A stretch of DNA of 63,428 nt, counting the filler, from Reclinomonas americana ATCC 50394 (taxonomy: Eukaryota): NCBI GenBank assembly GCA_048213135.1. It is 11 parts of 11 records of this genome, joined end to end, with 100 filler letters (N's around TTAATTAATTAA, not from the genome) between each part and the next. Parts side by side here need not be neighbours in the genome. Positions count along the whole stretch, not along the records: positions 3,251 to 18,320 come from AFZH01019779.1; 10 more parts are not named here. One strand, written 5' to 3'. Shown here in pieces: positions 1-63,232 of the stretch. The translations under genes were made by a program, and so were the position numbers. The notes under the pieces were generated by a model, which saw only the letters and a program-made list of their open reading frames with translations, did not search any database and had not been told where the DNA came from. Numbering within the stretch: the stretch's first letter is position 1; each line of letters opens with the position of its first letter.

Positions 1-569
1 CGTCGTGGTAACGGACGTACGTAGTACGTACTATAGTAGTACCGTACCGACCGACACTACCTACCAACACTACCGTACCGTACCGTACCGTACGTTGTCG
101 TCTCTCTCTCTCTCTCTCTCCTCCTTCCTCTCCTCCTCTCTCTCTCTCTCCCTCCTCTCTCTCTCTCATTGCCTCTCATCTTCTTCTCTCTCTCATTGTC
201 TCTCTTTCTCTCTCTTTCCCCCCTTTGCTCTCACTTTACACAACAGCAACACTCACCACAAAACTTCTGAAACACATTCTCAATCCGCGTCAACGACGGA
301 TCATCCACTGAGTGACACACACAAAGTGAGAGAAAATAACTCTCTCTCTCTCTATCACACTCATTGCTCTCACGCAACACATGGCATACACAGTGGCCAA
401 GTCAACAACAGGCTTGCGCGCGCGTGAAAGTGACTGCAGAATACCCATTCTTTTGACACACAGAGACTGAGAGAGAAAACGTGTCCTGCCTGACAACACT
501 CTTTTGTGTGTGTTTGTGTGTGAGAGAGCAGACTGTGTGTCTTGTGTGTGTCTGTGTGTGTGTGTGAGA

Positions 570-3106
570 ATGAGCGACTCTGATGAGGAGATGGAGTTTG
601 AGTTTGAGGAGGGCGAGGAGAGTGATGGTGTGTCTCACACAAAGAGAGAGAGAGTGTGTGTGTGTGCATAGTCACTCTCTGTGACAAGAGAGACACACAC
701 ACTCTCTCACATATGCAGAGAGACACTGTGTGTGCGTGCGAGTGTGCGAGGAGAGAGAGAGCACTCACACACATACACACACACAGAGACATGTGAAGTT
801 GTCACTCATGTGCGCGCGCTCTCTCTATACGTGCAACACAAGACACACACACACACACTCTCCCTCCTCTCTCTCTCTCTCTCCGCGTTATCACTCAAGA
901 TGCTCTCTCTCACTCTATTTGTGTGTCTCTCTCTCTCACTCACAGACAGCGAGCTCGTGTATGTTCCATCGTTCTCGCCGGATCACCAACGAATGGAGCC
1001 TGCGGGGCCGAGTCGCATGCGTGTGACCTATGATGGTGTGTGTGATTCCTCTTCTTCTTCTTGCATGTCATTTCATGTGCATTTCGTTCAATTCTCTTCA
1101 TGTGTCACAAGTGTTGAGAGCGGAGGATATCATCAAGGTGCAGGAGGCGGAGCTGCACAAGGTGCAGGATATCATGGCCATTCCCATGTCGTTGATCCGC
1201 GTGCTCTTTCGCAAGTATCAGTGGGACTCGGAGAGGCTGCTCAATCGGTGCGACGACACACAAGTGTGACGATCTCTCTCTTTCTTCTTCTCACACGCAT
1301 CCCATGCTGACGCTGTACGCCTGTCTTCTGCGCTTCTCTTGCCACTATTGGTGCATGGATTTGGCTGTTCTTCTATCGACTTTGTGTTGTACTCTCACTC
1401 TTTCTCACTCTCTCTTACTCACTCACTCTCTCTGCCTCACTCTCTCTTTCTCCCTTTCTCTTCGTCTCTCACACATCCCCTGTCGACTCTGCACGGCTCC
1501 CCTCTGCTCATACATTACAATCTTGCAGGTGCTTGCGTGACAAAGGCAATTTTCTCGCAAGCTTGCGACACACTTTCTACCTCTCTCGCCCTCACTCTCT
1601 CCCGCTGTCTCTTACTCTTCGTATAGTCTCTCTCTCTCTGTCGCATCGTTTGTTGACCCTGTATGGCTGCCTTCTGCTCTTGTCTCACCACCTTACCACT
1701 TTTCTTTGCATGGATTTGGCTGTTCTTTGTGCTGCACTCTCTCTCTCTCTCTCACACACACACACGCATCCCATGCCGACCCTGTACGTCTCTTGTCCTG
1801 CCACCTTGCTTCTTGCATGGATTTTGCTGTTCTCGAGAGTTTGAGACATGTTCTCTCGTTCCGCACATGCTCCCTTGGCTCTATGCTACTCTCTTTTCGA
1901 TGCGCGTCGTCTTTACCCCGTTTGCACGCCTGTGTGTCATCCTCTCATAGGTTGCCCTCCCCTCTATCCCTCTCCTTCTCACCCCTTCTCCCCCCTCCCT
2001 TCTCCCCCCTCCTTCTCCCCCTCCTTACCCCTTCTCCCCCCTCGCGCCTCAGCTACTACGACGCCGGTCGCGACAAGGTCTTCGAGGACGCCGGCCTCAG
2101 CCTGACCGCCGAAGAACTGGCGGCACTCGACTCGGCCGCCCAGCCGAAATCGACCTCGTCCACCGCTGGTGGTGAGTGCGCATGAACTGCTGCTTCGTTA
2201 CGGTGCAGTCGCTTATGGTAGTGATGTGCAGGCGCAGAAGCCGAGGTCCTTTGCGAAACGTGCTACGGCGACTACCCGCTGTCGGAGACGCTGTCGCCGG
2301 GCTCGTGCGGCCATCGTTTCTGCCTCGGCTGCTGGACCACATACGTGGAGATGAACATTCGCGAGGGCCAGAGTCGCAACCTGCACTGCATGGGTCACAA
2401 GTGCCGCACCGTACTCGACGAGGATGTGGTCATGAAGTGCGTGGCGTCCGGAGGGGGCTTTTTCTTGAAGGGGTGTGTGGGCTGACCGTCGTGAAACAGA
2501 GTCGTGCAGGATGTGGCCGTACGGCAGCGGTACTGGCAATCCATCAACGAGTCGTACGTGGAGGATGCGCCATTTGTGTGCTGGTGCCCGTCGGTGCCGT
2601 CGTGCGGCTGCGCAGTGCGTGTGTTTGGTCTCAGCGAGCCGAATTGGGACATCAAGTGTCGCTGCGGGTGTCGGTTCTGGTGAGCGCGATTGGGCGGCAA
2701 AGCTTTATCTCTCCCTTCCCTCCCTTCCCTCCCTTCCCTTCTCCCTCTCCCTCCCTCCCTCTCACCCTGTCCCCCTTTTCCTTTCTCCCTCTCTGCGCAG
2801 CTTCCGCTGCTCGGAACAAGTGCACTCGCCCGCCACCTGCGACATGATGCGCGCGTGGAAGAAAAAGTGCAAGGACGACTCGGAAACGTGCACGTGGATT
2901 CAGGCCAATACCAAGGTTTGTGTGGTTGAGATGTGTTCTCGTCGTGTTGTTGCCTCATCTCACATTGCGTGTCATTGCAGGACTGTCCCAAGTGCCACAA
3001 GCCCATTGGTTGCGTCTCCTGCCTCCCCCCCTCTCTCCCTCTCTCAACGCAGTGTGACTCACCTCTTGTGTTGCATCTTCGCAGAGAAGAACGGCGGCTG
3101 CCAGCG
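570..3106 (+). CDS. ARIH1: Ariadne-family RBR (RING1-IBR-RING2) E3 ubiquitin ligase, 3' partial, multi-exon
   Basis: Spliced translation: acidic N-terminus MSDSDEEMEFEFEEGEESD; UBA-like ..RVLFRKYQWDSERLL; RING1 [97 protein letters not shown]. GT-AG introns restore the frame. The contig ends at 3150. Confidence 0.93.
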
Positions 3107-3150
3107 TGAGTCTCTTTTGCGCTCAATCACCTGATCATGAGTACTGTTTT

Positions 3151-3250
3151 NNNNNNNNNNNNNNNNNNNNNNNNNNNNNNNNNNNNNNNNNNNNTTAATT
3201 AATTAANNNNNNNNNNNNNNNNNNNNNNNNNNNNNNNNNNNNNNNNNNNN
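3151..3250. other. Artificial contig/scaffold spacer (44N-TTAATTAATTAA-44N); the same spacer recurs at 18321, 24065, 27599, 39616, 41840, 49601, 53691, 58145 and 62031
   Basis: Identical 100-nt spacer with stop codons in all six frames occurs ten times. Confidence 0.99.
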
Positions 3251-3674
3251 GCAGGGACAGACACGCGGAGTGCGGTACCGAGCGCCTCGTGCACCGCGCA
3301 CCGCCGCGCCAGCACAGCCAGCACAGCCAGCGCCACCGGCAGCCGGCGGTCGACTTCGTGAGTGCTCTGTTTCTTTGTTAGATCTTCCGCTCATGCTCTT
3401 GTCCTCATTGTCTCTCAATCAGCCGCCGATGAGGTGGCGATGCTCGAGGCCGCCCTTGGCGAGCGCATTGATTTCGGCGTGCAGGGAGTGTTGCGTTGCA
3501 CTCTCTTGTCTCCCTGCGATGCTGAAGTCTGACTCGTGCATCGTTAGATACGCAATGGAGATGGATCCGCCTGCGGGTGGCGCAGTAACTGGCGAAGAGG
3601 AGGAAGGCGGCGAGGACGAGGAGCCGGAGGACGAGGATGGTGATGAGGGGGAAGAGGAAGACGATGACATGTAA
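3251..3674 (+). CDS. 3' end of a gene with an acidic C-terminal tail (possibly the end of the Ariadne gene across the gap)
   Basis: Three exons join in frame via a GTGAGT intron and a GTTGCG intron (donor 3490): ..RLPADEVAMLEAALGERIDFGVQGVYAMEMDPP..EDEDGDEGEEEDDDM*. Confidence 0.6.
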
Positions 3675-3945
3675 AAGCGTCGCCAAGTCGTGTCCCGTGC
3701 GCAGTTGTATCTGTCGGTCTTATCTGTTGTTCATGGTGGTGGCGTGCGTGGGTGGGTGATGCAGTTCGATCAGCTCTTTGACAGTGCACAAAGCCTGGTC
3801 GCTCGTCAGGTGCGCACGCACACAAAGGGGCCCTGAAACACTCAATCACTGATACAAGAATCACACACACAGCGCTATGATCGCGCATCACAACAACAAC
3901 AACCAGGTAAACGCATCAATGATGTTTGAACTCTCACACATGCAG

Positions 3946-6170
3946 AGCTGACTTCTGCACAGTGCGCACTCCTCCACCTCAACGATCATCATTATCTTCA
4001 TCATCATCGATCGCCTTTACTCGTCCGTATGCCGTTCCGCAAGTATCTGAGAGCACTCAAGCCTCTGCGGTGAGCTCCTCCTCCTTCTCCTTGCCCTCTT
4101 CTTCTTCTTCCTTCTTGTCTCTCTTCTTCCCTCCTCCTCCTCCTTCGTCTTCTCAGTTTTCCTCTTCTTGATCTTGTTCTCCTCCTCTTCCTCCTCCCCT
4201 CATTCCCTACTTCCTGTTTCTTGTTCTTCTTGTTCTTCTTGTTCTTGTTCTTCTTGCTCTTATTTCTCTTGTTGTTGTTGTTGTTGTTGTTGTTGTTCTT
4301 CTTCCTCTTCTGCTTGTTCTTCTTCTTTTTCTTGTTGTTGTTGTTGTTCTTCTTCTTCCTCCCACCTCCTCCTCCTCTTCTTCTTCTTCTTCTTCTTTTG
4401 TTTCTCTTCTGCTTCTTCTTGTTCCTCTTCTCATTCTTCTTCTTCTCCTCCTCTTCTTCTTATTCTTGTTTTTGTTGTTGTTCCTCTTCTCATTCTTCTT
4501 CTTCTTCTTCTTCTTGTTCCTCTTCTCATTCTTCTTCTTCTCCTCTTCTTCTTCTTCTTGTTTTTGTTGTTGTTCCTCTTCCTCATCATGCTTTCGCACT
4601 ATCGCGTTTCCTACGCTTCTTCCTGATTGTGTTTCTTGTCGTTCGCCTTCTCCTCCTCCTCCTTCTCCTTCTCCTCTTCCTCCTCTTCCTCCCTCTTCTT
4701 CTCCTCCTCCTCTTCTTCATCTTCTGCTTCTCCTTCTTCTCGTTACTTGTCCTTCAATCTTCTTCGTTCTTGTTGTTATTCTCCTCCTCTTCCTCCTCTC
4801 CTTCTCCTCCTCCTACTTCTTCTACTCCTCCTCCTCCTCCTTCTCCTCCTCCTCCTCCTCCTCCTCCTCCTCCTCCTCCTCCTCCTCCTCCTCACTCCTT
4901 CTCCCTCCTTCTCCCTCCTTCCCTCGTTCCTCATCCTCCTTCTCCTCCTCCTGTTCTCACACTCTCCCTTCTCCTTCTCTCCCTTCCCCTTCTCCTCCCC
5001 TCCTTCTCCTCCTCCACAGTCACGGGTCACCCGCCGCACGTTGAGTGGCGCCACATCGACACTCGGCGACGCACGACCATTCACGAGCTCCGCAGAGCCC
5101 GGCTGGACGTACGAGCCATCGCGCGATGCCTCCTCGTACGGCGCAGCACACACGCTGTCGGCACGCAATCAGTACCTGCCACCGTCGGCGTACTACAGAC
5201 ACTCGCAGGTGGCACGACACGGCAAGGGACGCGCTGCGGTCGCTCGTGACGAGTATCGCGTGCAGTCGGATGCTGGGCGGTACTACTCGCGAGGTGCTAC
5301 ACGTGGCTATCGTCGATCTCCAGAGCATAGTGTGGCGACTGACACGCAGCGCAGACGATGTCAACTATCAGTACCTGGTCGATGGGTACGCACGGCGACT
5401 GGTCGACGAGTGGGTGCGCCGAAGCGAGCGGTTGTGGCGACAGGTGTTTTTTTCGTAAAGAGGGAGAGGAGTTGAGGTATGCAGTGCGCTGACGGGCGCG
5501 CTGGCGTGCAGAGTCGACCGGCGGCGTGGGTGCGCGAGGTGGAGGTACAGGCGCAGCAGCTGGCCAGCCGCCTGGCCATCCCACAAGACTTTGTCATTCG
5601 CCGCATCTTTGGTGCGTCTTGGTGCGTCGTCGTCACCCTCACCTCCCCTTCGTCTCACGAGGCAACGGCAGATCGATGGGACGCGGTGCGCCGGCAAATC
5701 ATGCGCCGCCTCAACGTGTTCGACCTGGCCGGCACGGCGCACGGCTGGGAGGTAAACGAGATCGAAGACCGGCGCCTGGCGCGTCTCCTGGCCGACAAAT
5801 TCGAGCGTACACTGTACTCGATGGAGCACCTCGGACAGGAGCGCACCAACGACGACACACAACCGACAGCCGACGAGCTCCCCACACCCATTGACGACAA
5901 CGACGACCCGCTGCCACTAATCGACCTTGACACTGCACTGGAGATTGGTGATCGTCGTCGTCGCGGCTTCCTCGCAGCTGCGCACGAGATGTGGGCGGGA
6001 TTGTGGCAGACACTGCGTCGGTGGCTCTCGTTGTGGGTGCGTTCCGTGGCGGATATCGGAAGATCTTTTGTCTTGTGTGTGTTGACTTGTGAAGCGCACA
6101 GTTGGTGCCGACGTGGAGACGATGGTGGCGACATAGAACGCAATGAGCACAAACAGCTGTACAAATGCAA
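3946..6170 (+). CDS. Hypothetical multi-exon protein; boundaries approximate
   Basis: Protein-like spliced frame ..SSWHDTARDALRSLVTSIACSRMLGG..RRLVDEWVRRSERLWRQ|SRPAAWVREVEVQAQQLASRL..; the intron at about 4071-5020 is TCT/TCC microsatellite. No family recognised. Confidence 0.45.
4075..5015. repeat. Compound TCT/TCC/TTG microsatellite tract (intronic)
   Basis: Directly visible trinucleotide arrays. Confidence 0.95.
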
Positions 6171-6264
6171 GCACGTACACTCCCTTGGTAGAGGCTCAAT
6201 CCCTCCTCTCACTTTCTGTTTTTCTCACTGCACATCCCCCGTGCACTCTCACTCACTCGGTTGC

Positions 6265-6915
6265 TCACTTGTGGCCCTTCTCCTGCACACACAAAGAGTG
6301 AGTGACTATGTGTGTGGGGGGAGAGCAAATTGAGGTGAGTCACACACACTGACCGATTCCTCCTCGGGCACATACATAGGGTCGTCGGGGTGCAGCGGCG
6401 CAGGTGACTCCTCGCCTCTGGGGCCCTCCCAGGTGCCCTACACAACAAAAACACAAAAAGTGGTGAGGTGATTACGCGCGACATGACGTTTTCCCCCCCA
6501 CTCTCTCTCTCTCACCTTGCCGCCAAAGCCGCCCTTGGCTGGCTGGTCTGTGGTGGTGTTGGCACAATTCAGTGAGGGAATAGGGAAAAGAGTGAGTGCG
6601 TGCGTGGGGAAAACGGTTTGCAAACTGAGCACAAGGAATCATGCACGAGTCATGTTGTGCACACGCAAAAGATGCGCGCGACGTGTGTGATGACGTGGAG
6701 CAGAAGAACAAGAAGGCGCACACGCACAAGATGGAGAGACAGACGAGAGTGAAATGCACGTGTTTGAGCATGAAAAGCCTGCGGGGGAAAGCAGAGAAAA
6801 CACTCACTTTTTCTTCTTCTTTCTTTCTTCTCACGCAACTGCTCATGCCAGTGCGGGAGTGGCGATCCATCTCCGCCTCGGTCTTGTTGTGGTAGCGGTC
6901 GTCGTCGCGGCCCAT
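6265..6915 (-). CDS. 69-aa micro-protein consisting of a PDCD4/MA3-type N-terminal motif only
   Basis: Exons 6915-6840, 6547-6516, 6437-6354 and 6282-6265 translate to MGRDDDRYHNKTEAEMDRHSRTGMSNQPAKGGFGGKGTWEGPRGEESPAPLHPDDPMYVPEEESEKGHK*. This matches the PDCD4 pattern DRxSRxG..PxKGGxGGKGxW..DPxY. All introns are GT-AG. Confidence 0.75.
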
Positions 6916-7356
6916 GGTTGCTTTCTCTCTTGCGTTGATTCAAAGAAGATGATGAAGAATGAATTTTCCCGAGTGACGTCATGCGAATCGCGCGCGGGCC
7001 CGCAGCGAGTCGAGTCGACTCAAGCACGCTGTCTGTGAGCTGCGGTGCATCAGGATCACGTATTGCAAGTCTGTATACTGGAAGCGCGGTGTGCGATCAA
7101 TATTATAATGGATGACGTCGACTTCGTGACGCAATTCAAAATCGTGCACAGCACAGCTGCATGGCAGCTGACCCGTCGCGGCAACACAAAGACACGAATC
7201 CTGCCGTGTTGCTTGTTGTTATGCTCGGGTTAACAGCAACATTTAAAATTGCCGCCAAAATCAGTTCCAACCGTTTTCCCTTCGTATTTTGTGCGCAACA
7301 CATGGGCCATGAGTGAGCGACTTGTCTCCCATCGCCCGCGCACTATTGCTGCCACG

Positions 7357-10300
7357 ATGCGCTTTCTCTTCGCCGTCACACTCGTGCTCGTGCACTCATT
7401 CGCTGTCGATGCAAGTTGCGCGTTCACTTTGCATTTCTTCTGTGTTCCCGCACACACGCAACGCATCACGTCCTCACCCACTCTGCGCAACAGATGCTCA
7501 GACAGTGACCACCGCCGTCGCCACCAACATCACGGGCTCGTCGGTCACAGTGAATGCGTGGATCAATCCCAACAATGTTGCTGGTGGAACCACGAACTCG
7601 TTCGAGTGGTCACTCTATGCTGCCGCTCTGGGCGTTCCCAGTACCTCTGTCTCCACCATTGTGGGCACGGCAGGCACCTCGGGAACAACGGACGGTGTTG
7701 GAGCAAGCGCGTTGTTGAATACACCGATGGTTTGCTCAACAGTTGTCCCTGCTGTGTGCACTTCCGCTGACACACTGAGTGTGTGCAACTGCAATAGGGA
7801 CTGGCCTTTGATGCCATGGGCAACGTGTATGTGGGCGATTACGGGTTTGTTATGCGCACTCTTCCTGTTGTCTGTCGATTGTTGATTCGTGACTTCTCAC
7901 TCTCGTGCACACACGCGATGGTGACAGCAACTGTCGCATTCGACGCATCACACCAGCGGCCACAGTGGCCACCTTTGCTGGCAGCACATGCGGCCTGACG
8001 AATGCCACAGGAGTGTCAGCTAAGTTCAAAAAGTGCGCTCCTGTTCTTGCTCTCTCTCCTTCTTCCCTCTCCCGACTCACTGACACATTCTCACAGTGTT
8101 GCCGGCCTCGCCATCGATCAAACCACGGGAATCATGTATGTCGCCGATGTGAGTGTGTGCTGGCATGCATGCATGATCACGGATGATGCAATCTGTTGAC
8201 TATCTGTGTGCTGCTGTAGTTGATGAACCACGCCATTCGTGCCGTCACCCCAGGAGCAGTAGTCACCACGTTGGCGGGCAACGGGGCATCCGGGAGTGCC
8301 AATGCCACGGGTGCAGCAGCCTCGTTCAATCAGCCCGCTGGAGTGGCGGTGGATGCCACGAACCAGGTGGTGTATGTGGGCGACTGGCTCAACAACACCA
8401 TCCGGCGAGTGACGTATGCCGGTGCGGTGACGACCTTTTGTGGCTCCGCTGGCATGACAGGCACAGCCGATGGTGCGTGTGCGGGAGCGGCGCGATTCGG
8501 TGGTCCGAACGGCGTGCTTCTTGTTGGAACCACGCTGTATGTTGGTGAGCGCTGCGTGGGAACGAGAGAGATGCCCCTCCTTATTGCTCATCCTCCCCTC
8601 CTGCTTGGTGTGCATGATTGCAGCCGACCGCGTGAACAACTCCATCCGAGTCATTGACACGGTGGCGATGACAGTGACGACGTTGGCAGGATCAACGAGT
8701 GGCACATCAGGATCCACGGATGCCACCGGTGAGTCTATCATCATGGGCAACTCAGTGTGATCTGTTGACATTCGTGCTGATCGATGCACACCAGGAACGG
8801 CTGCTCGCTTCAACACACCCATTGGGCTGGCATACGACTCTGGAAACAACGTCATCTATGTTGCCGATGTTGAGCACTTTCCACACACTCTGAGCGTTTC
8901 GCTTCTTGATTCTCAATGCCTTGTGCTCGACGCAGTCCGTGAACAACACTGTGCGGCAACTCCGAGTGTCAGACTCGTCAGTGAGCACCATCGGCGGCGC
9001 GGCGGGCATGAGTGGCTCAGCCGACGGCAGCGCACTGACTGTCGCGCGCTTCAACTCCCCTGTCCACCTCGCCTTCGATGCATCGACGGCGTCCGTGCTG
9101 GTCGCCGATTTCAACACGCACATCATCCGTCGCCTCTCGCTGGCGTCGCAGACGGTGTCGGCCACACCCGCCACCGCCACCGGCTCCCTTGCCACCTCCA
9201 TCGCCGCCTCACTGACTGGCCTCGTGAGCAACTGGACGTACTACTATCGTGCCGTCGGCGTCACCTCCACACCCAGCACCATCAATGGCGTCACCGTGTC
9301 CTTCACCACCGCCACGAATGTGGCTCCGACCGATATTAGTTGCTCGTCGACGACATATGTGTCGCCGTCGGTGGCGAATCAAGTCGTGTGTGCGCTGCAG
9401 ACGACGGACGCGAATGCGGGCCAATCGTTCACGTACTCGATTGTCGGGGGCGCCAACAGCGCAGTGTTTTCGATCAGCGGACAGTCGCTGGTGATTGTGG
9501 CGGCGGGGCAGGCAGGCAGCTCGCTGGCGGTGACGATTCGGTCGACGGACAGTGGATCGCCGGCGCTGTTCTTCGACAAGGCGTTCACCATCACAGCAGG
9601 TGAGCCAATTTGTGCTGCATCGTCTCTGTCTCCTCGCTGTGCTCTTACTCCTTCCATTGTTCCTCTTCCTCCTTCTCCCTCTTGCTGGTCATTCACGGTG
9701 CTCTTCTTCCTTGTTAATGTGTCACAGCCACCCAGACGCTGGCCACGCTGACGGCCAGCAGTGTGACGCCATCGTCGGTGACACTGAATGCCGTGGTGGG
9801 CAACTCTATTGCGGCCTCGACCATGAGCAACTCATTCGAGTGGGCACCGATGACAGCTGCATTCGGTGTGACACCGGCGTTGTCGACGTGGTTGGGCACG
9901 GCAGGTATGTCCGGCTCGACGGATGGCACGGGTGCTGCTGCTCGATTCAACAAGGCGGCGGTAAGTTCCTCACCGCACGAACGTGTCACAACTTGCGCAT
10001 CTGCTTGACGCGTGTTCACACTATATCACAGAGCCTCGCGTTTGATGCTTCCGGCACTGCGTATGTGTGCGACCAACTGAACTACGTTGTTCGGCGAGTG
10101 ACGAGTGGAGGTGTGGTGGCGGCGTTTTTGGGAACAGCTGGCTCAATAGGCTTTGTCAATGGAATCGGCACTGCCGCACGGTTCTACCAGCCGACTGACA
10201 TATCGATCGACCAGACGACCGGCTACCTGTACATTGCTGATGTTGCGCGCTGCAGTTGGGCTGTCGACAACTGGGTGTTGTGGAGTGTGATCTTCTCACT

Positions 10301-14778: not shown

Positions 14779-17700
14779 ATGGCAGGCGCTCCGATGAAAG
14801 AGGCCACTGTGGTGGTCATTGATGTGGGCGACACCATGTGTGAGGCATTCAGCAGCGGCACTGCTCCACTGGACGATGCCAAGTCCGCAGTGTTGTCATT
14901 ACTGCAGGGAAAGGTCTCTCTCTCTCTTGCTTGTCTCTCCCTCTCCACACACACACACACACTGACTTTGCGAGAGCACAGCTGCTGCACAGCAAGAACG
15001 ACGAAGTCGGCATTGTGCTGGTGGGCACACGAGGTATGCCGCGAAAGTGCATGTTTTCTTGTGACTTGTCTCTTACTCTCCATCACAGACACACAGAACG
15101 CACTGTACGACCCGAGCAGCGAAGGCTACGAGCACATCACAGTGGTCACACCTGTGGCCAAAGTGCAGCTCGACATGATGCACATGGTGGAGAGCACAAC
15201 GCGCGGGTATCAAGAGGGCGATGGTCTGTGTAAGAGAGAGACAACAAGCAGACAAGTGCATCAGTGCTGTGACACGCTCTCTCTCCACGCACAGTGGTTG
15301 ATGCGGTTCTTGTGGGCATGGACCTCATCCAGCGGCGCTGTGAGAACAAGCGGTATCGGAAGCGTATTTTGGTGGTCACTGCCGGAGGTGTGGAGATCAA
15401 GGATCCGTCGCAGCTCGCCACCATTGCTCACGGGTTGAAGACGAATGGCATTGAGTTGCAAGTGCTGTTGCGTTTTTGTCGTTCTCAAGCCGCTTGTCCG
15501 TGTGCGCGCGCTCATGCATGCGCAGTGGTGTCAAGTTCCCGCCAGTGTCGGCGGACGATGACGATGACGATGATGATGGTGGCGATGTGCGCATGGCTGG
15601 TGGCACGCAGCCACAGCGTCTGCTCATGCGCCTCGTCAAGCTCAGCGACGGCTCCTTTTATCCCATCAACGATGCGCTCACCATGCTCAAGGGTTTCCGT
15701 TCCAAGGTTCGGGTTTTGCACGTAGCACTGCTCCTCCTCCTCCTCTTCCTTGCCTGACACGAGATGGTGGCGGTCGCACAGAGTGTGCTGCAGCGATCCA
15801 CGTGCCGCACCACACTCGATCTGGGCGACGTGCAGATTCCTGTTGCGTGGCCACGCTCCCTTCGTCGTCAAGGTGGAGATGCAGGCGCTCACCACCGATT
15901 CGCAGGTGTGGGCCTTCACCAAGTCCACCGAGTCGAAATTCCCCACACCTCGCAAGGTCTACATTGACAAGCAGGGCCACGTGTCGCACATTGCAATGCA
16001 GTCGACGTACGTGGATGTGGAGGACCCGGAGAAGGAGGTCAGCGAGGAGGATCTGGTGCGAGCGTATCGCTACGGTTCCGATGTCGTTGCGTATTGGGGC
16101 AGAAGGAGGAATCAGGCGGAGTCGTTGGCGTTTTCCCTCACCGCTTGGTGGCGACTGCAGATCCCCATTGACAAGGTGGCCGAGGGCAGCATCAAATACG
16201 GCGCCAGCAAGTGCCTGAAAGTGCTGGCATTTGTGCAAGAAAGCGAAGTGCCTCGTTGCGTTGTCTTCTACGTGTCGTTGTACCACTTCCGCGGCTCACC
16301 TTTCTGACAGGCCACCATCTAATGTCACACGCGGCGTGCTTTGTGTCGTGGCCTGGTGACGATGTGGCCAGTCGTTGCGTCCATCCTCCCATCAGTTGTC
16401 CGTCGTTTCACAGAAGCTCATTTTTTCGTGCAGGCGCGCTCTCCGCTCTGGTGCGTGCAATGGCGGAGCTGAAGGTGTGGGCCATCTCGCGCTACGTGTA
16501 CCAGGAGAACCGCGAGCCCAAGATCGGCTTCCTCATGCCGAGTTGCGTCCCCTTCACCCTGCACACATCACACCACTCGCTTGTTCTCATCTCGCGCAGA
16601 GGTCAAGCACGACATGGATGTGCTGTACTGGGTGCAGATGCCGTTCCTCGAGGACGATCGGTGAGCATCGCTGCAAATCTGTTGCTGCGAGACGCACACA
16701 CCGCTCACATCAATTCCGGGGAGCGCAGGCACTTCCAGTTTGGGTCATTTGCGGAGGTGGCGGTGACGCCACACCAGCAGAGTGTGATGGGCGATTTGGT
16801 GCGATGCATGGATCTGACGGCCGACGACATTCGCGACGATGAAGGGTGCGTGAGGAGTGATCAGGATTTGAGTGTGTTGAATTCAGCGACTAATCGAGTG
16901 TCGGAGTCAACAGCGAGCCCGTGGAATACCTGAAACCCTCCGAAACCTACAATCCCGGCCTGCAACACTTTTACCAATGCCTGACGCATCGCGCCATGAA
17001 CCCCAAGGACAAGCACTTGCCACCTCGCGATCCAGCAATCGACAGGTTTTCCGCATCGATGTTGATTGGTTTGTGAGCGCCCGTACCTCACGCCGCCGCT
17101 TCCAGATATCTGCTGCCGGAGCAATCGGTGGACAGCGCACTCGGCGATTTCCTTGCACAGGCAGCCGGTAGCATTGAGATTGCACGGCAAGCGTTTCCGA
17201 CCAAGCCCGGTTCGCGTCACAACACCTTCCCTTCCTTCCTCCCTCCTTCCCTGTCGCCCTTGTCTCCACCATTTTCGCCGCCCTTCTTTCCTCCCTCCCA
17301 CCATCCCTTCGTCCATCCCTCCATCCCTTCATCCCTTCGTCCTTCCCTCTCGCTCACTTTCCTCCATTTTCTCTCTCCCTCCATTCCTTCCTCCCTCCCC
17401 CCTTCTTCTCCCTCCCTCTCGCTCTCTTTCCTCCATTTTCTCTCCTCTCCTTTCTTCCCTTTACTTCCCTCCCTCCCTTCCTCCTTGCCCTTTACTTCCC
17501 TCCCTCCCTTACCTCCCTTCTTCCCTTTCCTCCACCTTTCCCATTCTGACCATTGACGCGCAGGCGACCTGGCGGCCGCCAAGGCCAAGGTCAAGGTGTT
17601 TGGTGGCGACGCCGAGTTGCCGACCATGGACAGCTACGGCGCCTCCGGATCGGGTGCCCACGACGGCGCATCGGTGGCCTCGAGTGCCGTCGGCAACATG

Positions 17701-18320
17701 CCAGCCGACATTGCCGCCATCTTCACCACGCGGCCGACCACTGTCAGCTCGGCCAATCCCGTCAAGGACTACTGGACGATGGTGCACGATCAGACCACGG
17801 ATCTTGTGCCAGTCGCCAATCGCGAAATGGTCAACGTCATTCACAAGCTCATTCGCGACTCGATCGGCGACCAGTACTACAACAAGGTGCGGCCTGGAAA
17901 TGTTGTCGATCGGTGTGATTGTTGTTACGCCTCACCGCCCGCGATGCAGATTGTCGACTGCCTGGTCAACTTCCGCACCGGCTGCATTCAGGTGAACGAG
18001 CCACAAGAATACAACAACCTCATGCTGGCGCTGCGCGATGCACACGGAAGACCGGGTGCGCGACGTGAGGACCTGTGGGAGCGCATCGTGCAGCACGATC
18101 ATGGCAAGCTGACGCTCATCACACACGTTGCGTCTGCCGAGTTGTCCCTTTCCCCGTTTTTCCTTTGCGCTCAATTTATGGTGACCCGCAGAGCGAGCAA
18201 CCGGACTCGGATGTGGGCGACGCACAGGCGGCCAGCTTCTTCTCCCAGGCGGTGCCGGCGGCCGCCGCACCTGCTCCCATGCAGCAAGATGCTGGACCGG
18301 GTGTGGGCGACGATTTGCTC
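14779..18320 (+). CDS. XRCC5: Ku80 (NHEJ DNA end-binding subunit), last codons lost in the gap
   Basis: vWA start KEATVVVIDVGDTM..DEVGIVLVGT; core RAYRYGSDVIP..KCLKVLAFV..ALSALVRAMAEL..AISRYVY..VQMPFLEDDRHFQF..NPGLQHFYQCLTHRA; C-terminal domain NPVKDYW..YYNKIVDCLVNFRTGCI..KLTLIT; tail GVGDDLL. Confidence 0.95.
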
Positions 18321-18420
18321 NNNNNNNNNNNNNNNNNNNNNNNNNNNNNNNNNNNNNNNNNNNNTTAATTAATTAANNNNNNNNNNNNNNNNNNNNNNNN
18401 NNNNNNNNNNNNNNNNNNNN

Positions 18421-30956: not shown

Positions 30957-33158
30957 ATGTTATTGCGCGCGTGGTTGTCGAGCGTCACCGGCGCCTTACA
31001 CAACACGAATTCATGTACGCGCGCTGCTTTTCTATTTGCATGTGTGTTTCACTGTCGTGCTGCCTGATCTCGATTATGCAGGTCGGCAAGCACAGCGGAC
31101 ATGTTCGTGTTTGCGGGAGCATGTGAGTGGTGGGAGGGAACGCGTGCTGTTTGTGGCCGATCGGCGGCATTTGCGTGATGCGACCATCAATGAGCGTTTT
31201 CTGGGCGAGTGGGAGATGCAGCGTGTTTTTCCGCGCGCGGCATTGATCACGGCCGAGAAGCAATTCGCGAGGTATGATCACCCCCTCTTGCTCTTGTGCG
31301 CAGAGGGTGGGCTGCTTACCAGGCGCGCATAGCTATGTTCCGGTGCTTCGTCAGCTGTTTCCGCGGGAGTTGGGCGCTGCGGGCACGGTGACATCGCCGC
31401 TGATTGATGGCGGTGATCAGTGGGGTGTCGAGGGACGAGTGCTGGTCAAGGCGGATCACAGTTGAGCTGCTGTTGCTGAGAGCAGGTGTGTGCGTGTTGG
31501 TCACTGACTGTGTATGTGTGTGGCTTTCGTAGCGCTGCCGATTGCGGGCTCGATCAAGGCGCGTGGAGGCATGTTTGAGGTGTTGTCGGTGGCTGTGCAG
31601 GTGGCCAAGAAGGCCGGTCTCTTGCCAGAGGAGCACACTGCTGGTCTGTGTCTGTGTGCGTCTGCCTGCTGCTCGTCCACCAAGCTCACTGCGGTCTTGC
31701 TGCAGAGGATGTCATGGTGCTGGCCTCGCCCGAGGCACGACGCGTGTTCGCGCAGCATCGTTTGGCTGTCGGTGTGTGTTTGTCGTGCCCTCTGCGGCAG
31801 AGACTTGTGCTCACGTGTGTGGCGCGCAGGAAGCACTGGCAACCTCGGCCTCTCGATTGGTCTCACTGGCTCACGCCTCGGATTCCACACCACCGTGCAC
31901 GTCTCCAACAACGCGAAAGAGTGGAAGAAACGCGTGTTGCGCGAGGCCGGTGTGCACGTGATGGAGCACGACGGCGACTACTCGCGTGCGGTGGCGCGTG
32001 GACGGTATGTGTCTGCGAGAGTGTGCGTGTGTGTGCTACCGCAAGCACTCACGCGTCAACACGCAGTGAGGCTGTGCGCAACGACCCACAGGCGCACTTT
32101 GTCGACGACGAGAACTCGATTCAGTTGGGTCTCCTGCGCTCTTCCTTCTCCTTTGTGGAGTCTGACTGGCGGTGTGGCGCAGTCTGTTTGCCGGCTACGC
32201 CACGGCGGCACAGGAGCTCTCCGGCCAACTCAAGTCGATGGGCGTAGCGGTCGACGAGCAACACCCGCTCTTTGTGTATCTCCCGTTCGGTGTCGGCGGT
32301 GCGCCGGCGGGTGTCACCGCCGGATTGAAGCATCATTTTGGTGGGTCTGCCGGCGTCGCTGTCTCTCTCCTCCTCTCTCCCTCTCCATCTGACCGACACT
32401 GCGCAGGCGACAATGTGCACTGCTTCATTGCGGAGCCCGTGCAAGCCTGCTGCGGCACAATCGCCATGATGCAGCTGGCGCATGTGGAGCGTGGTGAAAG
32501 GTCTCTCTGTCTCCTTGGTTGCTTGAGTATTTTGTCGTTGTCTCATGCTGTGTTGCGGCGACAGACACGACTTGCCTCTGGCGTCCGTGTACGCGTACGG
32601 CTTGACGTGCAACACCATTGCGGATGGTCTGGCGTGCCCCTCGGTCTCCGAGCTCGCCATGAATGCCTGCGGCGTGGCCTGGAGCGGTGAGTTGCTTCTT
32701 CTGTGCCCGTTGATCAGCAGAGAGAGTCTTACCTGCTTGCGGTGGGTACAGGAGCGTACACGTTGCACGACGACGACATGCTGCGGATGGTGTACATGGT
32801 GCGCGAAACGCTGGCGCTGTCGGTGGAGCCGTCGGCCAGTTGCGTGCGCAGTGCACATACTCTTACACGTTACGTTGCTCACCTCGACTCGCGATCTGCA
32901 CGCAGCTGTCGGCTTTTTCGGCCCGTCGTTTGTGGAGCACACCAAAACCGGCCAGCAGGTGACGCCCTCATCTCCCTCCCCCTCTCTGCTTCTCTCCCTC
33001 ACCTCTGCTCTCAGTATCTACGCAGTGTCGGCGGCACGGCGGCATCGTGGCGCAATGCTACACACGTGGTGTGGACCACGGGCGGCATTCGAGAGCCACC
33101 AGAAGAGTTCCAGCGCAACTACGACCGAGGTCGTCAACTTTTTGCTGGTCAATGAACA
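30957..33158 (+). CDS. dsdA: D-serine dehydratase, bacterial DsdA type (PLP fold II), with a putative mitochondrial presequence
   Basis: Diagnostic motifs [12 protein letters not shown] (PLP lysine), [77 protein letters not shown]; about 11 introns. Confidence 0.93.
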
Positions 33159-39598: not shown

Positions 39599-39787
39599 GA
39601 GAGAGAGAGACGAGANNNNNNNNNNNNNNNNNNNNNNNNNNNNNNNNNNNNNNNNNNNNTTAATTAATTAANNNNNNNNNNNNNNNNNNNNNNNNNNNNN
39701 NNNNNNNNNNNNNNNCTGCGTCTCTCACGCACATGATCTCAATCTTCAATGCATCACTTGCTCGTTTGGCACTTCTCATTCTTCTCA

Positions 39788-39819
<32 letters not shown>

Positions 39820-39977
39820 GTCTCTCTGAAGTCTGTGAGAACTCCATGCTGACTAACGTTGTGTTGAGGAAGCAGTCACTGCCTCTCTCACACACACAAT
39901 CTCATTCTTCGCCACTTGCTCGTTTGGCATTTCTCATTCCTCTCTCACTCTCGCACCCTCATGCCAGCGAGAACACC

Positions 39978-41189
39978 ATGCTGACGAACGTTGCATCGAG
40001 CGTAAGCACTCACTGCCTCCGCTTGCTCTCTTTCTCCCTCCTTCCCTCTCCCTCCCTCTCTCTTTCTCCGCTTCCCTCTCACTCTTCTCTTGCGACGCAG
40101 ATCCTGCAAGGCCCCCCCGACGTGGTGTTCTCCGTGGCCATCACCCCCGACGAACAGCACCTCGTAAGTGGCGGTGAAGACTCGGTGCGAGTGTGGTCAC
40201 TGGCGAGTGGAGTCGTGGAGCGACAGTTGGATGGGCACACCAACAATGTGCTGTCTGTCGCCATCACTCCCGACGGGCGGCACATTGTCAGCGGCAGTAC
40301 GGACAAGACCGTGCGCGTGTGGTCGCTGGCGAGTGGAGTGCAAGTGCAACGGATGGACGGACACACAGATGCAGCGCGGTCTGTGGCGATCACTCCGGAC
40401 GGGCAGCACGTGGTGAGCGGGAGCTGGGACACAACGGTGCGCGTGTGGTCGTTTGCGACGGGAGAGGAGGTGCGACGGCTGGAGGGGCATGCTGATTGGG
40501 TACTGTCTGTCGCCATCACGCCCGACGGGCGACACGTGGTGAGTGGCAGTTGGGACCTGACTGTGCGCGTGTGGTTGCTGGAGAGTGGCGACGAGGTGCG
40601 ACGGCTGGAGGGGCACACTGATTTGGTGTTCTCCGTTGCCGTTACGCCCGATGGCGCGCACGTGGTGAGCGGGAGTCGGGACAAGACCGTGCGCGTGTGG
40701 TCTCTGGCGAGTGGAGAGGAGGTGCGGCGGTTGGAGGGGCACACGTCAATGGTGTTGTCGGTGGCCGTCACTCCCGACAGTCGGCACGTGGTGAGCGGGG
40801 GTGACGATAGGACGGTGCGCGTGTGGTCGCTGGAGAGTGGGGAGGAGGTGCGACGGTTGGAGGGGCACGCAAGTTATGTGAATTGTGTTGCCGTTGCGGG
40901 TGGTGGTGGTGGTGGTGGTGGTCGGTGCGAGGTGGTGAGTGGGAGTGATGATAAGACGGTGCGAGTGTGGTCGACGCCGCGGGGGTTGGCTGGGAAGGAG
41001 GCAGAGGCGGTGAGGGTGGTGGTGGGGGTGGTGAGGGGGATGTTGGTGGGGGTGGAGGAGGAGGGGGAGGGGGAGGAGAGGGAGGTGGGGGAGGGGGATG
41101 TGTGTGAGTGGATACTCGTGGAGGTGGTGATGAGGTGTTTTGTGTTGGAGGATGCGGAGGTGATTGAGAGGAGGGCGGCGGAGTGGTAG
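39978..41189 (+). CDS. Seven-repeat WD40 protein with high internal repeat identity (HET-E/HNWD-like repeats) and a short helical C-terminal tail
   Basis: Exon 1 MLTNVASS (39978-40001); intron GTAAGC..GCAG; exon 2 40101-41189 with 42-aa (126-bp) units GHTxxVxSVAITPDGxHVVSGSxDxTVRVWSLASGEEVRRLE. Confidence 0.9.
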   Translation: MLTNVASSVSTHCLRLLSFSLLPSPSLSLSPLPSHSSLATQILQGPPDVVFSVAITPDEQHLVSGGEDSVRVWSLASGVVERQLDGHTNNVLSVAITPDGRHIVSGSTDKTVRVWSLASGVQVQRMDGHTDAARSVAITPDGQHVVSGSWDTTVRVWSFATGEEVRRLEGHADWVLSVAITPDGRHVVSGSWDLTVRVWLLESGDEVRRLEGHTDLVFSVAVTPDGAHVVSGSRDKTVRVWSLASGEEVRRLEGHTSMVLSVAVTPDSRHVVSGGDDRTVRVWSLESGEEVRRLEGHASYVNCVAVAGGGGGGGGRCEVVSGSDDKTVRVWSTPRGLAGKEAEAVRVVVGVVRGMLVGVEEEGEGEEREVGEGDVCEWILVEVVMRCFVLEDAEVIERRAAEW

Positions 41190-44793: not shown

Positions 44794-45014
44794 GATTGTG
44801 TGCGGAAAAATGTAGACGAGTGTGACTGTGTGCGAGCGCTCAGGTGCACACGTGTAAAGGTGAAAGGACGGACTCCAAAAAAGGCAGTGTGCGCCTCTGC
44901 AGGACGACCACAGATATCCATCTGCTCCCTCAACATGCTCACCAAGGTACAACGCACCCCGTGCACAGCTCACCTTCCCCATCTCCTCTACCTTCCCACC
45001 CTCACACCCCCCTC

Positions 45015-45876
45015 ACCATCACCCCCGACAGCCAGCACATGGTGACCAGCGGCAACACATGTGCGAGTGTGGTCTCTCGCCTGCACCACGAGTGGAGAAC
45101 AACAAGCACGCCAGTTGCACACGCACTCTACTCTGTGGCCGTCACTCCCGACGGCGCACACGTCGTGAGTGCGAGTGCAGACGTCGACGAGACCGTGTGT
45201 GTGTGTCGTCGTTTACGACTGGAGGAGAGGAGGACGAAGTGCGACGGTTCGGGGGACACGAGTGGGAAGCAACGGCCGTCGCCGTCACTCCCGACGGGCA
45301 GCACATTATCAGCGGCAGTACGGACAAGTCAGTGTGCGTGTGGTCGCTGGCGAGTGGCGACGAGGTGCGACGGTTGGAGGGGCACACGGCAGGCGTGTTG
45401 TCTGTCGCCGTCACACCACATTGGTAGCGGGAGTCGCGACATGACATGTGCGGGTGTGGTCAATGGCGAGTGGAGAGGTGGTACGACGACTGCAGGGGCA
45501 CACTGCTGCAGTGAACACTGTCGCCGTCTCGTGAGTGGCAGCGAGGACCACACTGTGCGAGTGTGGTCGCTGGCGAGTGGGGACGAGGTGCGGCGATTGG
45601 AGGGTCACGCTGGCGCGGTGCTCTGTGTGGCCGTCGCCCCCGACAATGGGCAGCACGTGGTGAGTGCGAGTGGCAGAGACAACACGATACGAGTGTGGTC
45701 GACGCCGCGCGCGTGGGCTGGCCCGACGGGAGCTCTCCGTTGCACGGACGGCCGTGTTGGCTGTGCGTGAGCTGCTTGCCGACGATGACTGTGATTGGAT
45801 GCTCGTGGAGGTGGTGATGCGGTGCTTTGTGATGGAGGATGCAGAGGTGATTGAACGGCGGGCGGTGGGATGGTAG
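45015..45876 (+). pseudogene. Degraded paralogue of the 39978-41189 WD40 gene
   Basis: WD40 fragments in shifting frames with deletions and stops; same tail WMLVEVVMRCFVMEDAEVIERRAVGW* versus WILVEVVMRCFVLEDAEVIERRAAEW*. Confidence 0.85.
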
Positions 45877-56181: not shown

Positions 56182-58001
56182 TCAGCAGTGGTGGAGCGGT
56201 GCGGGCAGTGGAACGGCTTCGGCGCCGACTGCCCGCAACGCCTGCATAAAGAGGGGGGAGCGGGACTTGGCCAGCGCGCCGGTGCGGTTTCGTCGCGGCT
56301 GTTGGTGGTGTGCGGATGCCGCCGCGGCGGCGGCGTGCAGATGTTGTTGCTTGCGTGCTGCTATTGCCGTTGTAGCCACCGGTGGCGACGGCGACTTGCG
56401 TGCCGTGCGCGTCGCCGTTGGCATGGCGCGCGTCGTGGTCATGTCCTCGGCCGACGACACGCTCACCGGCAGCATGAGCATCTTCGAGTCGAGGATGCGC
56501 TGCTGGGCCTCGAGGGCCGCCGGAATGTCGAGGAACAATTGCACCTCGCGGTCACTGGTGGCCAGCAGGCACATGCTGCCGTCGTTGGTCCACGCACCCG
56601 ACGTGATAATGCCGGCGTGCAGACGCGGCATCTCCGCCTGCAGCGCCTTGTCCGAGTCGATAATGTGCGCCGACTTGCCGCCGCCGACCAAAAAGTGACC
56701 GGACGGAGTCGGGCGCCATGCCACAAAGGTGGAGTCGGCCGGCGCCTCCCAGTACTCGACCATCTTCTTGCGCGCAATGTTCCACACACAGACGCGGGCG
56801 TCCGAGGCCAGCGTGGCCAGTCGGCTGCCGTCGTGGCAAAACGCGGCGCTAATGACTTGAATGTGGTGCTCGTCGGCGCCAATGGCCGTGTGCTGCAGCC
56901 GTTGCATCACCGTGTGCGTGAATTTCGGCGACAGTGTGAGGTGGTGCACGCAGGCGGTGCCGTCCATTGACGCGGTGACGAGGCGGGAGCCGTCGGGCGA
57001 GAACGCCAGGTCGTTGATGGCGGCCGAGTGCGGGCAGCACGAGAACAGCAGGCGGTTGTGGCCCACGAGTGAGGCACGCGGACCCCACACCATCAGCTGA
57101 CCGCGCTCGTCGGCCGACGCCAGCACAGTGTTGGACACTTGGACTTTCGAGGCCTTGGCGCACAGAACCTGTATTCAGGAAAGGGAGGGGCGTGTGTTAG
57201 AGGAGGAGAGGGACGGGAGAATAAGGAGGGCATGTACCTTGCAGTTGTGACCCTCCAGAACAAACACGCAGTGGCCATCCGAGCAGTCCCACACACTGTG
57301 GTTGTCGCCGAGGTGAGAATGATGAGTGAGAAAAGATGCTTTTGCCTCTGTGCACTCACCGCACAGTGCCATCGTTGGAGGTGGAGCAGAGGAACCGACC
57401 ATCGGGCTGGAAGAACGACACCGAGTTGATGACCGCCTCGTGGCCCTCCAAGGTGAGGCTCTCGCAGCCGTCGGCGGGCGCGAACTCGTGACCGACTTGC
57501 GGCACATTGGAGACAAACGACGACGAGTCGCGACTGGCCAGCATCTCGCGCGAGTACCAGATGCGCACGCAGCAGTCCATGGAACCAGTGGCCAGCACCG
57601 ACGAGTCCGCCGGATGCGCGTCAATGGTGGTGATGGGACCGCGATGACCCTTGAACACACCCTGCACAGCACAACAGCGCAGCGAGTCAGACTGCAGGTT
57701 CTGTGTCGTCTCTTGCTTGCCTGTCTCGACACGCAACAATGAGCTCGAGTGGAGACTGGCGCTCGACCACCGCACCGGGATCGGTCGGCGACATGACCGA
57801 CAGTGGGGTGGTGGCGCCGGCAGAGGAACCACTGCTGCAGCCCTCCTCGTCGCTGCACGGGGTCGACGAGCTATGACTGCGCCACAGTTCCTTGGCTCGC
57901 GGCGACGCCACAGGCGAGTGCTCGGGCGTCGAAGTTGCAGAGCATCCGCACGAGCACAAACTGGCGGAGAAGCTCGACGGCGACGGTGGATTGCTGCTCA
58001 T
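56182..58001 (-). CDS. WD40-repeat protein (divergent repeats, Ser-rich N-terminus); 3' end uncertain
   Basis: FKGHRGPITTIDAHP..LATGSMDCCVRIW; LEGHEAVINSVSF..STSNDGTVRVWD; HSAAINDLAFSPDGSRLVTASMD. Confidence 0.85.
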
Positions 58002-62030: not shown

Positions 62031-62130
62031 NNNNNNNNNNNNNNNNNNNNNNNNNNNNNNNNNNNNNNNNNNNNTTAATTAATTAANNNNNNNNNNNNNN
62101 NNNNNNNNNNNNNNNNNNNNNNNNNNNNNN

Positions 62131-63232
<1,102 letters not shown>

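Follow-up and report, generated by a model that had tools for sequence, protein, structure and literature searches.

A predicted 69-residue micro-protein of Reclinomonas americana made up almost entirely of a PDCD4-type ribosome-binding region

Can the segment with which PDCD4 plugs the ribosome exist as a protein in its own right, separate from the domains that contact the translation machinery elsewhere? In 2024, PDCD4 was reportedly found to plug the 40S mRNA channel through a short N-terminal segment that it has in common with SERBP1, HABP4 and Stm1. The two MA3 domains (PF02847) of PDCD4 bind eIF4A. A first-pass annotation of a 63,428-nt stretch of Reclinomonas americana ATCC 50394 DNA (hereafter the window, meaning the whole stretch that was analysed) proposed that a locus of four tiny exons encodes the PDCD4-type segment with no MA3 domain attached. 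It also placed that segment of PDCD4 in the 40S mRNA channel, in agreement with the accessible text of PMC11217289, where residues 100–145 are the ribosome-binding region and occupy the 40S mRNA entry channel; in the same text, R102 stacks on C1701, R110 stacks on C1698 and W124 lies in a pocket of uS3. Here we analyse the locus computationally and propose that it is probably a real, intron-split micro-gene, the product of which is almost only a PDCD4-type ribosome-binding region and would act as a minimal plug of the mRNA channel that lacks the eIF4A arm.

A minus-strand gene of four small exons

Joined by their coordinates, the four minus-strand exons (76, 32, 84 and 18 nt) give a 210-nt coding sequence (CDS) and a 69-aa product, which reproduces the exon coordinates, motifs, start and stop described in the first-pass annotation. 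The predicted features are as follows.

6916..7300 (strand not assigned): presumed promoter, the divergent intergenic region common to the micro-gene and a plus-strand NHL-repeat gene
6913..6915 (−): start codon in a Kozak-like context, caaccATGG
6840..6915 (−): exon 1 as it ends in model A (extended to 6835 in model E); a 16-residue leader and Motif 1, DRHSRTG
6548..6839 (−): intron 1 of model A, with donor GTTGCG and acceptor cacAG
6516..6547 (−): exon 2 (from 6542 onward in model E); the linker plus the opening half of the glycine-rich core, up to PAKGGFGGK
6438..6515 (−): intron 2, 78 nt, GTGAGA...TAG, phase 0, dividing the core between K and G
6354..6437 (−): exon 3; GTWEGP with the Motif 2 Trp, DDPMY 16–19 residues past the Trp, then an acidic tail
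6283..6353 (−): intron 3, 71 nt, GTCAGT...CAG
6265..6282 (−): candidate exon 4, five codons and TGA (6267–6265), without homology support

An in-frame TGA lies nine codons upstream of the ATG, at 6942–6940, and exon 1 has a GC3 of 0.92. The motifs run in the order DRHSRTG (exon 1), KGGFGGK/GTWEGP (across intron 2) and DDPMYVPEE (exon 3). Exon 3 aligns without gaps to PDCD4-type segments, and the glycine-rich core that intron 2 splits here is uninterrupted in all relatives. At the 3′ end, splicing of intron 3 brings a stop five codons past exon 3, and its retention adds 15 codons before a TAG, both as counted in the first-pass annotation; the retained frame has a GC3 of 0.44 and a codon score of −8 bits. 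Exon 4 is the weakest part of the gene model. The four-exon splicing pattern is a prediction from homology and coding statistics.

Within the divergent region of about 390 bp we noted by eye the CRE/ATF-like motifs TGACGTCA, TGACGTCG and TGACGCAA at 6974–6981, 7113–7120 and 7127–7134. The neighbouring gene on the far side (7300–9800, plus strand) carries NHL repeats (PF01436, E = 1.8e-4 on 8220–8657) and is split over several frames.

Two equivalent models for intron 1

Intron 1 admits 24 stop-free, in-frame pairs of donor and acceptor, one of which contains the GTTGCG donor. Two GT–AG pairs yield the linker length found in relatives. Model A joins the GTTGCG donor to an acceptor before 6547, using the first AG of a CAG-ACCAG tandem. 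Model E joins a GTGAGA donor (after 6835, at 6834), identical in its hexamer to the donor of intron 2, to the acceptor accAG before 6542. Their products are equal in length and differ at two residues, and relatives do not separate them: the match to the closest relative, the gene model P0008 described below, scores 48.7 bits for A and 50.0 bits for E (phmmer). The GTTGCG donor reported for this intron is therefore a possible member of a GT–AG pair but not a required one, because the canonical GTGAGA/6542 pair gives a protein of the same length.

A further candidate, model B (GTGAGT donor at 6807, after 6808; 78 aa, a net gain of nine residues), was rejected. Its 33-nt extension of exon 1 has a GC3 of 0.27 and a codon score of −10 bits, and against relatives the model falls 13–17 bits below the others.

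On the minus strand at 6829–6839 and 6543–6553, the GTTGCG and GTGAGA donors, 5 nt apart, face the CAG and ACCAG acceptors, also 5 nt apart; matched pairs preserve the frame and mismatched pairs shift it. Such an arrangement may provide for alternative splicing, or it may be coincidental.

Coding signal and the possibility of chance

Motif-like ORF pieces and GT/AG dinucleotides might fall into such an array by chance, with no gene present, and taken singly the exon pieces do look unremarkable. They gave no match in Pfam at E <= 10, none in the PDB and none in the Atlas. The exon 3 frame retrieved no candidate of 23–76 aa from a collection of 5.8 billion proteins, the exon 1 frame retrieved ten candidates of 106–2000 aa from the same collection, none at E <= 10, and a metagenome scan with the exon 1 frame produced 598 pattern matches, of which 0 were confirmed. 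(A search of the whole window against Rfam likewise returned 0 matches.)

The coding statistics of the assembled gene oppose this explanation. The spliced CDS has a GC3 of 0.855, compared with 0.73 for the Pfam-supported coding sequence of the window, which has a GC content of 0.56 as a whole. Its codon log-odds are +10 bits in frame and −29 and −22 bits in the other two frames, a score that 1.9% of 20,000 random 207-nt stretches reached, and all three introns score negatively in every frame. Across all six translated frames of the window the Motif 1 pattern DRHS[RG][ST]G is found a single time, and of 200 windows simulated with a second-order Markov model (Markov-2) one contained it. Nor did shuffling recover the similarity to P0008: 0 of 2,000 shuffles reached its score, whether the whole protein was compared or the N- and C-terminal parts were each taken without the glycine core. 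We regard a chance origin as so improbable that it can hardly be credited; judged by these sequence measures, the micro-gene is a real gene and more than a coincidence.

A PDCD4-type segment in the strict sense

Scanning metagenome contigs with the degenerate pattern K-G-G-x-G-G-K-G-x-W-x-x-P yielded 65 loci. The context was of PDCD4 type in 42 of these, and in 40 of the 42 the frame stays open for 199 residues or more; MA3 followed about 45–60 residues past the core in 19 of the 20 metagenomic ORFs scanned. No Pfam family covers the ribosome-binding segment of PDCD4, and ORFs that bear MA3 return MA3 alone at E <= 0.01. We used a profile of our own, A1, built from 39 metagenomic PDCD4-type segments together with the translations of exons 1 and 3.

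Against the PDB, A1 matched residues 101–152 of human PDCD4 (E = 4.8e-20; 40S complexes 8xxl, 8xxm, 8xxn, 9bkd and 9bln) and, at E <= 1, no chain of SERBP1, HABP4 or Stm1, which makes the motif PDCD4-type in the strict sense. The parallel with PDCD4 drawn in the first-pass annotation is thereby borne out, including the human sequence it quoted. As for its further comparison, with a SERBP1/Stm1-like motif, a DRHS-type Motif 1 and the Trp motif are common to both; at E <= 1 the profile reaches none of the corresponding PDB chains.

The 69-aa product scores 36 bits against an HMM of 39 unique MA3-linked segments, a value that is partly circular because the loci were selected by a pattern that the window also fits. 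Taken alone, the downstream flank scores 5.6 bits, which 9 of 2,000 shuffles reached. The upstream flank is not significant (515 of 2,000 shuffles), which counts against the match and arises because most MA3-linked genes carry a Motif 1 of the K-N-S-R-K-S-R type and not DRHS.

Residue by residue, the product has both elements of the ribosome-binding region, a basic Motif 1 and Motif 2 ('WG'), the latter with its Trp present and its Gly read as Glu. It is identical to human PDCD4 at 19 of 47 positions with one single-residue gap (by eye). R18 and W39 align to PDCD4 R102 and W124, and H19 stands in place of R103; by eye, no Arg occupies the R110 position and E40 replaces G125. Among the 17 nearly invariant columns of A1, 12 are preserved (by eye). 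The five changed columns are the Gly of WG (to Glu), the first Lys of KK (to Ala), the Gly after W-x-P (to Arg), the Gly of R-G-L-P and one Asp.

One metagenome contig, L065 (528–797, minus strand), has the unusual Phe-containing core K-G-G-F-G-G-K-G, as in the micro-gene. Its ORF stops 24 codons past the core and has neither D-P-x-Y nor MA3; either a further short form or an exon with an intron after it would account for this.

No MA3 domain follows in the window

Whether the four exons are complete depends on what lies beyond them. The two MA3 domains (PF02847) expected of a PDCD4 protein did not appear for the micro-gene in searches of the window: neither MA3 nor PF04774 was found in 67 minus-strand ORFs of at least 30 aa within 1–6224, and MA3 was absent from the 40 long ORFs of the window. 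An HMM of the post-motif region of PDCD4, built from seven proteins, matched none of 1,796 six-frame pieces of the window (best E = 2.3). MA3 was readily seen in the positive controls, comprising 19 of 20 metagenomic ORFs and all four long relatives. As the first-pass annotation had held, no MA3 domain follows; none lies downstream on the minus strand or anywhere else in the window, and coding signal in the space downstream supports the convergent gene that the annotation placed there:

5150..6135 (+): convergent neighbour; two frames show coding signal between 5150 and about 5950, which is fading by about 6050

Its codon log-odds and a GC3 of 0.70–0.83 hold up to 5925, and it matches no Pfam family. 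The end at 6135 was placed by eye on a possible terminal exon with a TAG near 6133–6135. Codon statistics gave no minus-strand coding signal in 5000–6260.

The exons could nevertheless be the 5′ part of a longer PDCD4-like or SERBP1-like gene with later exons beyond the convergent gene or outside the window. The 3′ end is a prediction from sequence, exon 4 has no homology behind it and the window extends 6.2 kb downstream and no further. We consider this very unlikely, given that the 67 downstream minus-strand ORFs hold no MA3 or HABP4 match, the 1,796 six-frame pieces hold none either, the stretch from 5150 to about 5950 carries plus-strand coding signal, and the orthologue P0008 ends at the same point. 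The searches cover the window; elsewhere in the genome a full-length PDCD4 may exist beside the micro-gene.

Elsewhere in the window, positions of about 4000–5250 form a long, pyrimidine-rich, low-complexity tract (GC skew −0.28, AT skew −0.48) with spurious ORFs of 280–390 aa rich in Leu, Pro, Ser and Phe. Other genes of the window encode a Ku70/80-type protein with a Ku C-terminal domain, a PALP enzyme, three WD40 proteins (one a single ORF of 505 aa) and a weak TIG match; they lie at 16172–18372, 31508–32392, 39672–41189 and 44826–45770 on the plus strand and at 56182–57174 and 62083–62925 on the minus strand.

Relatives that also stand alone

The first-pass annotation had suggested looking for short stand-alone homologues, and these exist in Chromosphaera perkinsii (66 aa) and in red algae (about 90–130 aa). 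An exhaustive search over representatives gave 885 clusters at E <= 0.001 in which long and short proteins are mixed. Restricted to candidates of 13–123 aa, the A1 search of the 5.8-billion collection matched 504 of 739 at E <= 0.01. Among the best 120 of these 504 short matches, 87 are exon fragments of longer genes that begin inside the glycine core, 32 have the N-terminal part and 16 have a Motif 1 of the form [DNE]RH. P0008 belongs to these 16, as do annotated proteins from Gracilaria domingensis, Agarophyton chilense and four species of Galdieria. MA3 was absent from all 19 short relatives that were scanned. PF04774 (cut-off 21.8 bits) matches 16 of the 19 at E <= 1 and passes its cut-off in eight, the match being confined to its first 35–90 positions or so; P0008, the closest relative, has no Pfam match, PF04774 included.

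P0008 is an uncharacterised 66-aa gene model of C. perkinsii (EukProt EP01135 P004131). The product ranks it first, with red-algal proteins next, and is identical to it at 29 of 54 residues (phmmer, 48.7–50.0 bits). Against an HMM of the 16 stand-alone sequences the product scores 50–51 bits, compared with 36 for the MA3-linked HMM, and it still scores 45 bits when P0008 is left out and the red-algal type alone remains. It has the features by which we delimit the stand-alone class: at most about 130 aa, a [DNE]RH-S Motif 1, the K-G-G-x-G-G-K-G-x-W core, D-P-x-Y and no MA3. In databases, the stand-alone homologues are carried as hypothetical or misnamed proteins; for some short red-algal ones the names given are 'MA3 domain-containing', despite the absence of MA3, or 'Hyaluronan / mRNA binding family'.

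A short form of this kind might also be what is left of a PDCD4-like gene after loss of the MA3 exons, functionless and decaying, whether or not it is transcribed. In many protist PDCD4-like proteins, P0154 and P0213 with MA3 among them, the segment sits at the very N-terminus; in the long PDCD4-like proteins P0154, P0213, P0186 and P0169 the binding region, with a DRHS-type Motif 1, begins 7–30 residues from it, so that loss of MA3 exons would yield such a micro-protein directly, and several conserved positions of the product are altered. Against decay, nothing disrupts the reading frame, the start codon or the splice sites, GC3 is 0.855, and short forms are kept in four Galdieria species and two florideophytes. 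The 66-aa model of a second species moreover shares both the end point and the Y-V-P-E-E tail, an agreement that would be surprising had the two genes been truncated independently. We judge a remnant to be unlikely.

A candidate plug of the mRNA channel

We favour a functional protein. On vacant 40S or 80S ribosomes the micro-protein would thread into the mRNA channel, with its Trp in the uS3 pocket and the Arg of Motif 1 stacked on a decoding-centre base; it would thereby exclude mRNA and serve as a minimal hibernation or silencing factor without the eIF4A-inhibiting arm; as it has no MA3 domain, eIF4A binding is not expected. In the available portion of PMC11310195, the N-terminal domain of PDCD4 alone reduces mRNA binding to 40S, and its binding is far weaker when eIF1 and eIF1A, or the 43S complex, are present, so that the binding region on its own may block only weakly. 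Excerpts of PMC13419753 describe a Trp mutation that abolishes ribosome co-purification and assign SERBP1 W218 a role equal to that of the PDCD4 Trp. Release may be regulated. In the part of PMC13296611 open to us, mTORC1 phosphosites of SERBP1 peptides map to Ser of the DRHS-G-S stretch, and since Motif 1 of the micro-protein has Ser and Thr at those positions, release by TOR-dependent phosphorylation of S20 or T22 is plausible by analogy.

The protein might, on the other hand, be real and stand-alone and act outside the channel, either protecting against stress as a disordered, hydrophilic protein or binding RNA in general, with no more than ancestry in common with the PDCD4 segment. A similar G-K-G-x-W-G-K-P-G-D-E stretch occurs in yeast Stf2/Tma10, small proteins (about 85 aa) that likewise stand alone and that we take as possible members of the same class. 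Tma10 is reportedly associated with ribosomes, and Stf2 is described in the literature as a hydrophilin of desiccation tolerance; a role of the latter kind would suit the micro-protein if the presumed kinship of Stf2 with the PDCD4-type family holds. A literature search found no paper linking Stf2/Tma10 to the Stm1 or PDCD4 motifs. A non-channel role would also fit the change of five of the 17 nearly invariant columns, WG to WE included, and the missing Arg at the R110 position (both by eye). Weighing on the other side, the Trp, the Motif 1 Arg and the spacing from Trp to D-P-x-Y are preserved, and the orthologue P0008 retains the canonical WG and R-G-L-P. A role outside the channel therefore seems to us fairly unlikely. 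The departures from consensus nonetheless hold our confidence in the mRNA-channel plug, predicted as it is from sequence, to a moderate level.

Discussion

The architecture described here is a new variant of a known ribosome-binding module. In the literature, so far as its texts were accessible, a search found no description of short proteins made of the PDCD4-type region alone. A natural protein of this kind would separate channel blocking from eIF4A inhibition, and the micro-protein would give structural and biochemical studies a minimal model peptide.

More tentatively, micro-proteins consisting of the binding region only may form an ancient, widespread and undescribed class of mRNA-channel plugs, and might even be the free-standing source module of PDCD4 and SERBP1/Stm1; we put this forward as a possibility that we ourselves doubt. 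On such an account PDCD4 would be the module fused to MA3, and SERBP1/Stm1 the module fused to longer tails. The class would range over a holozoan protist, red algae and possibly fungi and plants, and might be regulated by TOR. If true, it would account for mRNA-channel densities left unassigned in ribosomes from lineages without a clear SERBP1 or PDCD4 homologue. The micro-gene would also bear on how the module evolved: fusion may have come later to a unit that first stood free, or truncation may have occurred repeatedly.

The locus carries a warning for annotation as well. Genes of this type are missed by ORF tracks and Pfam; no family covers the PDCD4 segment, P0008 has no Pfam match, and homology searches for them meet many exon fragments (the 87 among the best 120 short matches).

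Comparison with known systems

P0008 is the nearest counterpart. It resembles the micro-protein in size, in its short charged leader, DRHS-type Motif 1, equal linker length, core and D-P-x-Y-V-P-E-E, and it too ends a few residues past the common Y-V-P-E-E; unlike the micro-protein, it retains the canonical R-G-L-P-K-K and W-G. The short red-algal proteins (113–117 aa in the four Galdieria species, 110–120 aa in Gracilaria and Agarophyton), along with metagenomic ones of 89–128 aa, are next. The red-algal proteins likewise stand alone without MA3 and have a DRHS or NRHS Motif 1, the core and, in their case, DPNY, but they continue into longer, low-complexity C-terminal tails.

SERBP1, HABP4 and Stm1 (PF04774) are like the micro-protein in their DRHS-type Motif 1 and in a Trp motif, which in their case binds the uS3 pocket, and the accessible passages of PMC11310195 and PMC11217289 give them a channel-blocking mode in common with PDCD4. 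Unlike the micro-protein, they are much longer, have a different linker and have no D-P-x-Y at that spacing.

Human PDCD4 differs from the micro-protein in having MA3 and a long N-terminal part (469 aa compared with 69), in reading 'WG' where the micro-protein reads 'WE', and in an Arg at position 110 with no equivalent here. Within residues 100–145, however, the two have the same Motif 1 (D-R-x-S-R-x-G), the same K-G-G-x-G-G-K-G-x-W core, a Pro three residues past the Trp and D-P-x-Y at an equal distance from it.
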